Shown: one piece after another, positions 4,304 through 13,510 of the stretch
Position numbering within the stretch: position 1 is the stretch's first letter
Layout of the letters: each line of letters begins with the position of its first letter
Virus record (IMG/VR): IMGVR_UViG_2671180556_000021
DNA: 13,510 bases
Reading direction: 5' to 3' (one strand)
DNA from: a virus
Taxonomy: Duplodnaviria > Heunggongvirae > Uroviricota > Caudoviricetes
The notes under the pieces: model-generated
What the model saw: the letters and a program-made list of their open reading frames with translations, nothing else
What the model was told of the DNA's origin: nothing
Database searches by the model: none
Position numbers and translations under genes: made by a program

Positions 4304-5044
4304 TTAACTGTCGGTGACAGTGATTTCTGCAACCGCAGCAAGTTCACCATTACCGGATACAACCGGAATGTTGACCTTACCTGCAGCAACGCCTTTCACG
4401 GTGATGGTCATACCACTGACCGACACGGTGGCTTTTGTTTTATCCGCTGACACCGCACGGAAGCTCTTGTCAGTTGCGCCCTCCGGCTGGAATGCCACGG
4501 TCAGCGTGGTGCTCTGCCCTTTCACCACCGAGGAGCTGGCAGGCGTCACAGTCATACTGGTTGCCGCCGTCACCGTACTGCGATCTTCTGCCATTGACGG
4601 ACGGCCCACATTGGTGACCTTCACCGTACGGGTGATCACTTCCTTCGCCGTCACCGCCTTACCGATACTGCTGACCCAGCCACGGAACACATCGACCGTG
4701 CCGTTCGGGAAGCGGATTTTATAGGCACGGGTATCACCTTCATTAAACCACGCCAGCAGCGCCTGCTGCCCCTGCTCTCCGGGCATCCACGCCAGCGTGA
4801 AGCTGGTATCTCCGGCGGATTTCTGCCCCTGCCCGGTCGCGGTCCAGTCCGCATCTTCATCATCGAGATAACTGTCGTCATAGGACTCAGCGGTCAGTTC
4901 GCCGGGCGTCAGGTCTTTAACTTTAGCCAGACGCGACCAGTCAACGTCTGAAAGCGGGTTCGCATAAGGGTCGCCGCTCCCGTTATAAACCCACAGGGTG
5001 GTCCCGGCACCTTTCACCGGTATTGCTGGATTTGGTACAGGCAT
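4304..5044 (-). CDS. V: Major tail tube protein gpV (246 aa)
   Basis: ATG at 5044..5042 is preceded by the SD GAGGA. Translation [20 protein letters not shown]... runs to 246 aa with a C-terminal Ig-like region (...[18 protein letters not shown]). The ORF-track entry 4304..5074 is a 10-codon upstream over-extension. Confidence 0.93.
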
Positions 5045-5447: not shown

Positions 5448-6022
5448 CGCTTTATTACCATCCTCAGTTGATGCTGCAGCGCATAGCCCAGCTCTTTCGG
5501 AAGACGTTCACGCCGTATCCGCTCAATATTTTGTTTAAACGCCGTGGTCAGCGGCACCGCCATCGGGATTTTCACCACATCAATGGGGTAACGGTTTTTC
5601 CCGGCCACACGCTGCATGACATGCCACCGGCCATTTTTCAGTTGCTGAATAAACGCGCCGGGAATACGACGGTTACCCACCACAAGCACGCTGCCGCCAC
5701 CTTTCAGGGATGAACGCTGCCCCTTTTTACGACGCCTGCGGCGCGAAAGGACAACCCGCGCATTACCCAGCTTGATTACGGGCAAATCCCCCCGGTTAAC
5801 TTTGATTCTGGCCTGCGGATTTTTGACCGTGGCCCTTTTCAGCCTGGCCCTTTCCTTTACCAGTTTCCGGCGTACCTTTGTCTCACGGGCAACCTGTGAC
5901 GCCGACTGCGATATCGCGGATGAAGCAACGCGGTTAATGGCCATTGCGGCGGCACCAGGCACCGCCGTTTTGCTGATACGGCAGAGGTTTTCAATGGCCT
6001 GCTCAAGACCTTTTATGGCCAT
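5444..6022 (-). CDS. Z: Tail completion protein gpZ (192 aa)
   Basis: ORF 5444..6022, 192 aa (MAIKGLEQAIENLCRISKTAVPGAAAMAINR...). The SD AAGGGGGA lies upstream of the ATG at 6022. Sits between FII and U as in lambda. Confidence 0.9.
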   Translation of the reverse strand: MAIKGLEQAIENLCRISKTAVPGAAAMAINRVASSAISQSASQVARETKVRRKLVKERARLKRATVKNPQARIKVNRGDLPVIKLGNARVVLSRRRRRKKGQRSSLKGGGSVLVVGNRRIPGAFIQQLKNGRWHVMQRVAGKNRYPIDVVKIPMAVPLTTAFKQNIERIRRERLPKELGYALQHQLRMVIKR

Positions 6023-6033
6023 ACATCCCCCTT

Positions 6034-6387
6034 TCAGCGGCGACGGTTAACGGCAGGCGGTACGCCCCGCCCAAGCCAGAGATGACAGCTTCCACCATCA
6101 TCCGGCGAAACCCGGTCTATCCAGAAGTTTTCCTCACCGATGGTCAGCGTGTCTCCACGCCGCAGCTGCCGCACATCATCAGTCCGGACAAACAGGGACG
6201 GGCTGGAGCCTTCAACGCGCACGCCCTGTCCGGCATAGCTGATATTTTCAGGGTCATCAAAAACACCACGTATTACTGCGCCGGACTGCTCACCGGATGT
6301 CATGGTGGCTGACGTTCCCATGTACCCGCGTATCGTTTCATCGGCGCGGACAATGGCAGCATCGAACAGGTTATCGAAATCAGCCAC
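6034..6387 (-). CDS. FII: Head-tail connector protein gpFII (117 aa); GTG start as read from the sequence
   Basis: ORF 6034..6387 (first codon GTG, then ADFDNLFDAAIVRADETIRGYMGTS...), with the SD GGGAGG four nt upstream. 117 aa, as I recall for lambda gpFII. Confidence 0.88.
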   Translation of the reverse strand: MADFDNLFDAAIVRADETIRGYMGTSATMTSGEQSGAVIRGVFDDPENISYAGQGVRVEGSSPSLFVRTDDVRQLRRGDTLTIGEENFWIDRVSPDDGGSCHLWLGRGVPPAVNRRR

Positions 6388-6398
6388 AGCGCCTCCCG

Positions 6399-6794
6399 TT
6401 ATTGCATTCTGGCCAGGCCGCGCTCTGTCATTTCGGCTGCCACACCGGCAGAGACACGAAACGCCGTTCCCGGCAGCACAAATGCCACAGGTTCATCCCG
6501 CGTGGCGTGAAGTGCATCGGTATGCAGCGTCACCAGTGCCACAACCGTGACCAGAGCAGCCGTATCAGTCACGGTATCCGTCTGTGCTGATACCACCTCA
6601 TTTTCATGTCCGGTCAGCGCATTTTCCGGGCTGACAGACGAGTCCTGACCGGCTCCGTCATCCGTGTCATCAAGCTCCTCTTCCAGCTCTGCCACACGGA
6701 GCGCCAGTTCTTCTTTCGTCCCCGTCAGGCTGACATCACGGTTCAGTTGCTCACCCAGCGACCGGAGACGGGCAATCAGTTCATCTTTCGTCAT
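6399..6794 (-). CDS. FI: DNA-packaging and head-assembly accessory protein gpFI (131 aa)
   Basis: ATG at 6794..6792 with a strong SD (GGAGGAG). Translation MTKDELIARLRSLGEQLNRDVSLTGTKEELALRVAELEEELDDTDD... The ORF-track entry 6399..6833 begins 13 codons upstream, but that start runs into the E terminus and the intergenic hairpin and has no SD. Confidence 0.85.
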   Translation of the reverse strand: MTKDELIARLRSLGEQLNRDVSLTGTKEELALRVAELEEELDDTDDGAGQDSSVSPENALTGHENEVVSAQTDTVTDTAALVTVVALVTLHTDALHATRDEPVAFVLPGTAFRVSAGVAAEMTERGLARMQ

Positions 6795-6815: not shown

Positions 6816-6833
6816 ATGGCCCCGAAGGGCCAT
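6816..6833 (-). promoter_or_regulatory. Intercistronic RNA hairpin between E and FI: 7-bp stem AUGGCCC/GGGCCAU with a UUCG tetraloop, followed by a pyrimidine run
   Basis: The mRNA-sense (minus) strand reads UAA-UC-AUGGCCC-UUCG-GGGCCAU-UUUCUCUCU-GUGGAGGAGUCC-AUG(FI). The two arms are perfectly complementary (plus strand atggccc cgaa gggccat at 6816..6833) and the loop is the classic C(UUCG)G motif. Confidence 0.5.
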
Positions 6834-6835
6834 GA

Positions 6836-7857
6836 TTACGCCAGTTGTACGGACACGAACGCATCAGGGTCAGCCAGCAGCATCAGCGGTGCTGACTGAA
6901 TCATGGTGAACTCACGCGCCGGATCGCCGGTGGTCACCCAGTTTTTCGGGTAGCGGGCAGAGGCGTTAATACCTTCGCGCTGTGCGTCCGCATCCTGAAT
7001 GCAGCCATAGGTGCGCAGACCGCGTGCCTGAGTGTTCCCCAGCACCATCGTGTTGTCCGGCAGGAAGTTCTTTTTGACGTCGTTTTCCACGTACTGTCCG
7101 GAATACACGACGATCGCCGTATCGCCATACATTCCCTTATAGGACACCGCTTCGCCCAGGTCTTTTACCGCTGTCTCCAGCTCGGAATGAGAGCCGCGAC
7201 GGGTATCCAGCTTCTCCCTGACGGCTTTGAAGGAACGGAACAGCGCCCAGCCTTTCGGATCGAACACGATGATATTCACCACACCGCTGGCGTTCAGCGC
7301 GCTTCGATATCGTCGGTCGGGTCATACGTGGACTTGTCACGCTTGCTCCACTCCGTGCCGCCGGACTGCGTGATGTTATTCTCCTCACTGCGGCCCATAT
7401 CCACCTCAACCGGATCGAAGGCTTCACCGGTCATGGTGTATTTGCCCTTAAGCACGGCAGAAACTGCCTGCATCTCTTCGACCTGAGCAATGGCCAGCTC
7501 TTCGTCACGCATGTTCTGCATGATGATGCGACGGCGGCGGTAAGCCGGGTCCGCCAGATTCTGCGGATCTTCATCCGGCAGGCGACGCAGGGTCATCTGC
7601 GGATTCACTTCATGCTTCGGCTTGACATATCCCGGCGTAAATTCAGAGGTGGAGCCGCCACGGGAACGGATAACCTCACCGGAAACAATCGGCGAAACGT
7701 ACAGCGCCATGTTTACCAGTCCCGGAATTTGTGAGAGATAGACTTTCTCCGTAGTGAAGGGATAGCTCTCACGGAAAAAGAGACGCAGAAACAGCGGATC
7801 AAACTTAAATTTCTGCTCATTTGCCGCCAGCAGCTGGGCGGTTGTGTACATCGACAT
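6836..7857 (-). pseudogene. E: Major capsid protein gpE, interrupted by a frameshift (N-terminal frame 7294..7857, C-terminal frame 6836..7321)
   Basis: Starting from the ATG at 7857 (MSMYTTAQLLAANEQKFKFDPLF...), the frame stops at TGA 7296..7294 after ...STYDPTDDIEAR. The rest of the protein (ALNASGVVNIIVFDPKGWALFRSF...VSVQLA, stop 6838..6836) lies in another frame that is open only from 7321 downward. The two pieces total 1022 nt, where one continuous ORF of about 1026 nt (341 aa) is expected. Confidence 0.8.
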
Positions 7858-7870
7858 AAAAAAATCCCGT

Positions 7871-7895
7871 AAAAAAAGCCGCACAGGCGGCCTTT
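7871..7895 (-). terminator. Terminator-like hairpin in the D-E intergenic region: GC stem GCCGC/GCGGC, loop CUGU, then a U7 tract, on the late-mRNA strand
   Basis: The minus-strand RNA reads UAA(D stop)-CUUUACCCUUCAUCACU-AAAGGCCGC-CUGU-GCGGCUUUUUUU-ACGGGAUUUUUUU-AUG(E). Five G-C pairs extend by a G-U and three A-U pairs into the flanking A and U runs. A second U7 run lies directly before the E start codon. Confidence 0.4.
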
Positions 7896-7912
7896 AGTGA
7901 TGAAGGGTAAAG

Positions 7913-8245
7913 TTAAACGATGCTGATTGCCGTTCCGGCAAACGCGGTCCGTTTTTTCGTCTCGTCGCTGGCAGCCTCCGGCCAGAGCACATCCTCATAA
8001 CGGAACGTGCCGGACTTGTAGAACGTCAGCGTGGTGCTGGTCTGGTCAGCAGCAACCGCCAGAATGCCAACGGCAGCACCGTCGGTGGTGCCATCCCACG
8101 CAACCAGCTTACGGGTGGAGGTGTCCAGCATCAGCGGGGTCATTGCAGGCGCTTTCGCACTCAATCCGCCGGGCGCGGTTGCGGTATGAGCCGGGTCACT
8201 GTTGCCCAGCGGCTGGTAATGGGTAAAGGTTTCTTTGCTCGTCAT
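7913..8245 (-). CDS. D: Head decoration protein gpD (110 aa)
   Basis: ATG at 8245..8243 with the SD AAGGGA five nt upstream. Translation [41 protein letters not shown]..., 110 aa. The ORF-track entry 7913..8251 starts two codons too early (MFM...). Confidence 0.9.
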
Positions 8246-8254
8246 AAACATCCC

Positions 8255-8860
8255 TTACACTGGTGTGTTCAGCAAATCGTTAACGGCATCAGATGCCGGG
8301 TTACCTGCAGCCAGCGGTGCCGGTGCCCCCTGCATCAGACGATCCAGCGCAGTGTCACTGCGCGCCTGTGCACTCTGTGGTGCTGCAGCCAGAATGCGGC
8401 GGGCCGTTTCCACGGTCATTCCGGGGGTTTCTGCCAGAACGCGCGCCTGTTCTTCGCGTCCGTGAGCCTCCTCACAGTTGAGGATCCCCATAATGCGGCT
8501 GTTTTCTGCCGCAACCGCTGCGGTGATCTGCGCGTTCACGTCCGGCTGCGCCGCGCTGGCGTTTTCGCCCTCCGTCGCTGGCACCACGTCAGTAACGTCA
8601 GCCTGCGAAGCAGTGGCTGAAACAGTTGTTGATTGAGTCTCTTTGGTCATTCGCCCTCCTGAGAGACGGGATTTACGCGCATCCAGTGCATCACGCATGA
8701 CGGTGATCGCATCGGTGCTGTTAACAAGTTCATCAGCCAGTCCGGCATCAATGGCCTCCTGACCGCTGTACACTGCAGCCTCGGTATCCAGCACAGCCTG
8801 CACAGACAGGCCGGTATATGCCGACACCTTCTGCGCAAACATCTGGCGGGTTGCGTCCAT
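8255..8860 (-). CDS. nu3: Scaffolding protein gpNu3, an in-frame internal initiation product nested in the 3' third of C (201 aa)
   Basis: In-frame ATG at 8860..8858 (MDATRQMFAQKVSAYTGLSVQ...) sharing the C stop at 8257..8255. The 606-nt span matches the lambda C/nu3 nested arrangement. The call rests on homology with lambda, not on an independent sequence signal. Confidence 0.65.
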   Translation of the reverse strand: MDATRQMFAQKVSAYTGLSVQAVLDTEAAVYSGQEAIDAGLADELVNSTDAITVMRDALDARKSRLSGGRMTKETQSTTVSATASQADVTDVVPATEGENASAAQPDVNAQITAAVAAENSRIMGILNCEEAHGREEQARVLAETPGMTVETARRILAAAPQSAQARSDTALDRLMQGAPAPLAAGNPASDAVNDLLNTPV

Positions 8861-13281: not shown

Positions 13282-13510
13282 TCAGCAACCCCGGTATCAG
13301 TTCATCCAGCGCGGCTGCTTTGTTCATGGCTTTGATGATATCCCGTTTCAGGAAATCAACATGTCGGTTTTCCAGTTCCGGAAAACGCCGCTGCACCGAC
13401 AGGGGGATCCCGTCGAGAATACTGGCAATTTCACCTGATGAGTGCCCCGAACCACTGAAATCTGTCGTCAAGTTTGCGCTGGCAACTGGTCTGAGAAAGT
13501 CGAACATCAT
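13256..13510 (-). CDS. nu1: Terminase small subunit gpNu1, C-terminal 84 codons only; the 5' end and cosB/cos lie beyond the window end
   Basis: Frame open from the window edge to TAA at 13258..13256, ending ...[26 protein letters not shown], the C-terminus I recall for lambda gpNu1. The apparent MM start at 13510 is a window-edge artefact. Confidence 0.85.

Follow-up and report, generated by a model that had tools for sequence, protein, structure and literature searches.

Late transcription of phage lambda is the textbook case of processive antitermination, and the purpose of the terminators buried inside its late operon has never been settled. A hairpin of terminator shape, with a run of U at its foot, stands between gene D, for the head decoration protein, and gene E, for the major capsid protein, where it is fused to the ribosome-binding site of E. 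The question raised by this locus is whether the structure is maintained by selection and, if so, what it does ahead of the capsid gene in a message that is made by antiterminated polymerase.

The DNA analysed (13,510 nt, hereafter the window) covers the left arm of a lambda-like prophage and belongs to the late operon, with all genes on the minus strand in the order Nu1, A, W, B, C/Nu3, D, E, FI, FII, Z, U, V, G, T, H, M and the start of L. Aligned to lambda 555-13998, it shows 96.3% identity. The 801 bases around the D-E site are 99.4% identical to lambda and 100% identical to the prophage of E. coli VR50, and of 5426 complete E. coli genomes, 3223 contain this 801-base region. Over the 55 nt of the D-E spacer (window 7912-7858), the match to lambda 6080-6134 is complete (100% identity). 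At the other end of the window, the first 73 coding-strand bases (13438-13510, minus strand, the 5' part of Nu1) have no alignment to lambda and the remainder aligns, which suggests a putative mosaic junction inside or just before Nu1.

Gene E of the window has lost 4 bp near 7300, corresponding to CCTA at lambda 6691-6694. The loss creates a premature stop at 7296-7294, and the protein reads ...DDIEAR at its end, with about 188 residues instead of 341; with E truncated in this way, the prophage should not manage to build capsids. This deletion was found in none of the complete E. coli genomes of the collection. In VR50, identical to the window over 7500-8300, E is intact, and the deletion may be an assembly error.

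The features of the locus are as follows, all on the minus strand.

7913..8245, minus strand: gene D, head decoration protein, the upstream cistron (aligns to lambda D 5747-6079; taken from the list of open reading frames)
7915-7913, minus strand: D stop codon, TAA
7912-7858, minus strand: D-E spacer, 55 nt
7896..7912, minus strand: G-free 5' part of the spacer, CUUUACCCUUCAUCACU, 17 nt, variable among relatives
7874..7895, minus strand: hairpin, from folding, with stem pairs kept or compensated in relatives
7895-7887, minus strand: 5' arm of the hairpin, AAAGGCCGC
7891-7878, minus strand: GC core of the hairpin
7886-7883, minus strand: loop, CUGU
7882-7874, minus strand: 3' arm of the hairpin, GCGGCUUUU
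7877-7871, minus strand: first U7, immediately 3' of the GC core
7855..7870, minus strand: translation initiation region of E (AC, GGGA, U7, AUG)
7868-7865, minus strand: Shine-Dalgarno (SD) sequence of E, GGGA, within ACGGGA
7864-7858, minus strand: second U7, between GGGA and AUG
7857-7855, minus strand: E start codon, AUG
6836..7857, minus strand: gene E, major capsid protein, the downstream cistron (from its translation and the alignment to lambda)
6816..6833, minus strand: post-E hairpin, AUGGCCC-UUCG-GGGCCAU, immediately past the E stop within the E-FI spacer (from a terminator scan)

The stem comprises nine pairs (five G-C, one G-U and three A-U) closed by a 4-nt loop; it begins 17 nt past the D stop codon and ends 16 nt ahead of the E AUG. 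The first four U of the first U7 are able to pair with the upstream G/A-tract (one G·U and three A-U). Measured against what is expected of an intrinsic terminator, the element has a GC stem within the range of about 5-14 pairs and a loop within 3-8 nt, an uninterrupted U tract (U7) at the 3' foot of the stem, and a defined direction. It also lies outside translated RNA, and the 17-nt G-free stretch is probably long enough for the stem to be free of a ribosome halted on the D stop codon. The first-pass annotation, drawn from the letters of the window, had described this hairpin with its CUGU loop, the U7, ACGGGA, a second U7 and the E AUG, and each of these was found where it had been placed. 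The annotation had also called the spacer the largest intergenic gap of the operon. This holds within the window, where the D-E gap measures 55 nt and the E-FI gap 41 nt, and fails for the lambda late operon, whose annotated L-K gap of 148 nt is larger.

Folding of the whole spacer gives -14.5 kcal/mol (z = -2.77; 1 of 200 shuffles equally good) and folding of the hairpin alone -12.2 kcal/mol (z = -3.2), both past the -8 kcal/mol that the first-pass annotation had set as its limit. The hairpin is present in both the minimum free energy (MFE) and the centroid structure of a 201-nt context. A standard terminator scan of the window did not return the D-E site in its list, probably because bases of the U run are counted into the stem, which leaves too few T in the tail. 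Since the standard scan had missed the site, another scan was written, in which the tail is scored from the end of the GC core. At strict settings (at least 5 G-C pairs and at least 7 T in the 8 bases past the GC core) it found 2 sites on the coding strand of the window (13.5 kb), against a mean of 0.02 in dinucleotide shuffles. Within the spacer, an equally good hairpin with a U tail arose in 1 of 1000 shuffles. At looser settings (at least 4 G-C pairs and at least 6 T of 8), run on the whole lambda genome, D-E is the sole intergenic site in the block from Nu1 to J, with one further site inside gene C; sites were also returned at map positions that we take to be those of known terminators such as t_oop and the tR2 and tL regions. 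Read on the plus strand, the stem leads into CUUUAGUG, and the scan of that strand does not contain the site; the earlier statement that no T tract follows the hairpin there thus holds.

Inside gene C of the window there is a second terminator-grade hairpin, CCCGC-CUAUGC-GCGGG followed by UUUUCUUUU (9505-9490, minus strand, with a U-rich tail to about 9482; lambda 4487-4502). Its extended 8-pair stem, AACCCGCC/GGCGGGUU, is predicted at -12.5 kcal/mol. This hairpin is situated about 70 nt inside the gene, within the conserved LEPAYARVFF coding motif, and it is retained in enteric relatives and lost in distant ones. At locus L043, a CCC-to-CCU change is matched by CGG-to-CAG (R-to-Q), and the pair is preserved.

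The D-E hairpin is a known element of the lambda family and has already been marked as a terminator, or a putative one, in public phage records. The features named 'rho-independent terminator' in HK629 (NC_019711, 5911-5931) and in phage 434 (OL657227, 6100-6120) consist of exactly the GC core and the U7; the spacers of both phages match that of the window, and the element is the same. In phage 434, a ribosome-binding site is annotated at the E initiation region as well. In N15 (AF064539, 5980-6004), the stem-loop between genes 7 and 8 is described as a 'putative rho-indep. transcription terminator', and the record also marks a stem-loop after gene 8 as a putative terminator. The homologous N15 hairpin has the loop CUGC, followed by U7 and AUGGGA, and shows no structural difference in kind. 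The features in these three records are in-silico calls, and the lambda reference records NC_001416 and J02459 have no annotation of the element. The annotators of HK629, 434 and N15 concur independently with the reading of the first-pass annotation, which was right to see the shape of a Rho-independent terminator in the coding direction within a Q-antiterminated operon. Full-text literature searches returned no paper addressing the D-E hairpin, and a search with the hairpin sequence had a lambda display-vector preprint as its sole match; the function of the hairpin appears to have been tested by nobody.

The nearest described case is phage L, a P22-like phage, in which an intrinsic terminator is predicted after the procapsid module of the late operon (PMC8022706). 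Casjens and colleagues consider intra-operon terminators to be common in lambdoid late operons, with unknown roles, and name partial termination or the halting of polymerases without the antiterminator as candidate roles for the phage L terminator (PMC8022706). As at D-E, this is an intrinsic terminator that adjoins the capsid genes of a single-promoter, antiterminated late operon (PMC8022706). The phage L site, however, follows the whole procapsid module, whereas the one considered here lies between the decoration and capsid genes, and the phage L head genes are of a family unrelated to that of lambda.

Conservation of the element was followed through 220 loci encoding an E-type capsid protein, which gave 77 distinct decoration-capsid spacers. 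At capsid identities of at least 68%, a hairpin of -8 kcal/mol or lower with a U run directly after it (at least 6 T in 8) is retained in 59 of the 60 distinct spacers, the single exception being a lambda contaminant contig of about 1.5x coverage with apparent read errors. An uninterrupted T run of 6-9 (mode 7) starts right at the stem in 66 distinct spacers. Among the more distant relatives, the full shape of hairpin and U tail was found in 7 of 17 distinct spacers, among them those of Vibrio phage K243 (33% capsid identity) and of Amphritea, Motiliproteus and Marinobacterium prophages (39-42%). Four distant relatives have a strong hairpin without the U tail, namely E. coli phage 1W, loci L165/L166, and L069, where the tail is weak. 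The remaining ones have no hairpin or a spacer cut short by the parser. Between the decoration and capsid genes of Chi-like phages, which are separated by a 12-nt spacer, and of Xylella phage Sano, no hairpin was found. A tie between loss of the U tract and absence of Q was considered and rejected; no correlation was seen, 1W being a single case that lacks the U tract and encodes Q.

Several side observations concern the collection itself. Short contigs of about 1x coverage that are identical to lambda (100%; loci L005-L020 and L039-L077) occur in assemblies of unrelated bacteria, including Chromatium, Neobacillus, Kitasatospora, Paenibacillus, Bradyrhizobium, Prevotella and others, and are almost certainly lambda DNA contamination. 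The capsid protein of 'Campylobacter phage CJLB-4' (MW057783) is 100% identical to lambda E. Phage 1W (L374, OM475428) has cargo genes at 24196-27645 and 39286-39618, namely sitABCD for a manganese transporter and genes for an EmrE-type efflux protein and an OmpD-type porin.

What is kept among the relatives is the structure of the hairpin rather than its sequence, as would be expected of an mRNA stabiliser. In each of the 11 lineages tested, no more than 3 of 1000 dinucleotide shuffles match the hairpin with its U tail. The loops vary freely, with 21 different ones among 23 representative lineages, and the stems are compensated, as in GCCGC/GCGGC, GGGUCGC/GCGGCCC, GGCCAC/GUGGCC, CCGCGC/GCGCGG and GAGCC/GGCUC; the upstream A-tract is commonly retained. 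The count of stem pairs in the 23 lineages is anchored on the loop and is circular by construction, its control being the shuffles in the 11 lineages. In an unsupervised MAFFT alignment, in which several distant hairpins fall out of register, 90.9% of the cells pair, against 35-70% for slid partners. Five of the nine pairs change on both sides, a number reached by 2 of 500 shuffles, and the covariation score of 0.256, against 0.187 in shuffles, was reached by none of 500. Compensatory turnover, free loops and the shuffle and covariation results together indicate that the structure is under selection. The terminator-shape reading of the first-pass annotation agrees with this deep conservation and with the compensatory changes in the stem.

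In the block from hairpin to SD, lambda and N15 agree at 28 of 31 bases by our own count, or about 90%, and the proteins of the two phages are 69% identical for D and 90% for E. The block thus tracks the identity of E and not that of D, which implies that the hairpin travels with E. The 18-mer that joins the 3' arm, U7 and ACGGGA was matched exactly in at least 120 viral contigs, and every match listed directly precedes an E-type capsid open reading frame beginning with MS[MIVL]YTTAQLL. A portable terminator-RBS cassette serving other genes was rejected on this ground.

The two U tracts flanking ACGGGA do not have the same standing. The first-pass annotation had treated them as twins, and this part of its description does not survive comparison: the second run is not conserved, most relatives having AAAAATCT in its place, and a double signal was accordingly rejected. 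Between SD and AUG, UUUUUUU is found in the lambda lineage and AAAAAUCU in most others, with length and A/U-richness conserved and sequence not. Judged by this comparison, the second U7 is the SD-AUG spacer of E and no twin of the first. In all enteric lineages, GGGA or AGGA precedes the AUG by 6-8 nt (mostly 7), with flanks of A and U only; the earlier description of GGGA as a weak SD in a U-rich context was right, and the 7-nt spacing is conserved in nearly all enteric lineages. The first U run ends 1-2 nt ahead of the SD in enteric lineages. In Vibrio phage K243 and at locus L068 the distance from hairpin to SD is larger, yet the U run remains at the foot of the stem, from which it follows that the run belongs to the hairpin and not to the SD. 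Among near-identical prophages (L158, L248, L249, L131), the first T run varies from 7 to 9 and the second from 7 to 8, which is ordinary homopolymer polymorphism.

Pairing of the SD itself follows no rule. Its predicted unpaired probability is about 0.25-0.35, and it has no consistent partner. In the lambda MFE structure, CCC (spacer nt 6-8) pairs with the GGG of the SD, and in 60-odd natural relatives the predicted partner jumps among unrelated upstream and downstream sites. A conserved helix that masks the E SD and couples translation of E to termination on D was rejected.

A second conserved hairpin follows the capsid gene and serves as a natural comparison. The post-E hairpin folds at -12.9 kcal/mol (z = -3.85) and has a UUCG tetraloop; it and the D-E hairpin enclose the capsid gene. 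A hairpin in this position is present in almost every relative, down to Chi-like phages, Xylella phage Sano and Vibrio phage K243. The post-capsid hairpins (lambda E-FI, N15 gene 8-gene 9, Chi, Sano, K243) resemble the D-E element in being conserved GC hairpins in an intercistronic gap next to the head gene with the highest expression. They differ from it in their loop, often of the UUCG type, and in their U tail, which is erratic among relatives (0-8 T of 8), whereas D-E keeps U6-9 in nearly all enteric lineages. Since the post-E hairpin is equally conserved and its tail is erratic, the U7 at D-E is no by-product of the need for a stable hairpin, which argues that this tract is probably selected in its own right.

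The module formed by the A-tract, short GC stem, tetraloop and U7, fused to the RBS of the major capsid gene, is best, though tentatively, read as a conditional terminator in lambda and its relatives, which would serve afterwards as a 3' barrier on the mRNA and as an insulator of E. Lambda late genes are transcribed by Q-modified polymerase, and read-through of terminators under Q is established. A polymerase without Q, whether in a lysogen, after leakage past tR' or from a spurious start, would form the hairpin over the U7 hybrid and release its transcript just after D, so that the capsid gene and all genes downstream would be left untranscribed. During lytic growth, the Q-modified polymerase would read through, as Q narrows the RNA exit channel and would thereby suppress hairpin-driven termination; according to a review, the polymerase so modified resists pausing and termination (PMC12360218). 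In the finished late mRNA the hairpin would then fold and block 3'-to-5' exonucleases after a downstream cut, which would protect the D segment. It would also keep the weak GGGA of E in an unstructured U-rich leader, insulated from the upstream coding sequence. The analysis establishes how the element is shaped, how strongly it folds, that it is strand-specific and that it is conserved; termination of unmodified polymerase at this site and the roles at the RNA level are what we infer. The first-pass annotation had put forward a 3' stabiliser or processing barrier for the upstream message and a structure that tunes translation of E, and both roles are plausible.

The conditional terminator is favoured by the shape of the element, its fold strength, rarity, strand specificity and conservation, and the prior annotations; the stem would also stay clear of a ribosome terminating at the D stop codon. 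Several points speak against it. The phage needs about as many copies of D as of E, and a step down in mRNA between the two genes has no obvious benefit. The hairpin is kept and the U tract is not in 1W, L165/L166 and (with a weak tail) L069, and since 1W still encodes Q, a hairpin incompetent for termination can suffice. Chi-like phages and Sano have no hairpin at the site at all, and there is no evident reason for placing a barrier against unmodified polymerase 6 kb into the head genes and not at tR' alone.

Two readings dispense with termination altogether. The element may be purely post-transcriptional and, as an obstacle to exonucleases or a landmark for processing, determine how stable the D segment, the E segment or both are, possibly acting with the post-E hairpin to give a long-lived capsid segment of the 26-kb late message. 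We consider this possible and somewhat unlikely. Hairpins on both sides of E are consistent with it, the second of them having the profile of a stabiliser (UUCG tetraloop, no consistent U tail), as are the tailless D-E hairpins of 1W and L165/L166 and the near-identical block in which the hairpin travels with E. Such a stabiliser needs no U run, yet 6-9 U stand at the stem in the 66 distinct spacers counted above and the A-tract is commonly kept too, while the post-E hairpin of the same genomes persists without such a tail. The malE-malF REP element and the processing of the pap operon are familiar cases of intercistronic hairpins that stabilise mRNA in bacterial operons. Like D-E, they offer a stable intercistronic stem-loop that could shield the upstream segment from 3' exonucleases; unlike it, they explain the unequal expression of neighbours, whereas D and E are needed about equally, and their hairpins have no canonical U tract. 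An unlikely alternative would have the locus work as a translation device for E, the U7 tracts forming an unstructured, S1-binding, U-rich leader that offsets the weak GGGA, with the hairpin as an insulator or standby platform and the terminator-like look as a side effect. U-rich leaders are known translational enhancers, and E is among the most abundant phage proteins despite its weak SD; the fixed position of GGGA/AGGA between A/U-only flanks in every enteric lineage, and the end of the U run 1-2 nt before it, fit the same picture. Against this, the U run stays with the hairpin and not with the SD when the distance between them grows (K243, L068), relatives freely substitute an A-rich spacer for the second U7, and the SD, with its modest unpaired probability and no consistent partner, gives no clear signal of accessibility.

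Two further readings retain a transcript end at the site in other forms. A leaky attenuator to which even Q-modified polymerase responds, with a small fixed fraction stopping after D and less mRNA for E and for all the head-completion and tail genes downstream, would have the terminator-grade shape on its side and is nonetheless very improbable. A drop exactly before E is counter-intuitive, as E is needed at least as much as D, and V, the major tail protein, is abundant as well. Intra-operon terminators of lambdoid late operons might terminate partially (PMC8022706), and inefficient terminators balance expression in other phages (PMC9163698); Q-modified polymerase is, however, highly processive and resistant to termination (PMC12360218). 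That a small regulatory RNA derived from the D 3' UTR has its 3' terminus at the site, with an Hfq-binding hairpin and U tail, is scarcely credible, even with a match to the prophage sRNA family isrK (RF01394) overlapping the site. A hairpin followed by a U tail is the standard Hfq-binding 3' module. The isrK match falls far short of the family threshold, with 17.1 bits (E = 0.81) where the gathering score is 50. Any seed would have to lie in the 17-45 nt that precede the hairpin, which are the most variable part of the spacer, and a scan of the window found no promoter-like site nearby on the coding strand. Neither an Rfam match at the gathering score nor a conserved upstream seed was thus found. 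The Rfam search gave sub-threshold matches throughout (isrK, Leu_leader and a snoRNA, E about 0.6-0.8), and membership of the D-E element in a known RNA family was rejected for this reason.

Returning to the conditional terminator, a more specific form of it would make the element a safety catch that keeps E strictly dependent on Q, with no leakage of capsid protein from a lysogen at any time. Several capsid-sensing abortive-infection defences are triggered by this protein. This form is highly improbable as matters stand; if true, it would explain the retention, in deeply diverged lineages, of a terminator-grade U tract just ahead of the capsid gene, as well as the fact that the post-capsid hairpin needs none.

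These results do not change the current picture of the late operon, and as the element itself is already annotated in public records, the value added lies in the comparative picture. From spacer comparison, selection appears to keep the D-E terminator across relatives whose capsids are only 33-42% identical. The U tract is part of the hairpin and not of the ribosome site, and the hairpin after the capsid gene follows different rules. The D-E element thereby offers a clean and small target for a direct test of what a terminator inside an antiterminated operon is for.
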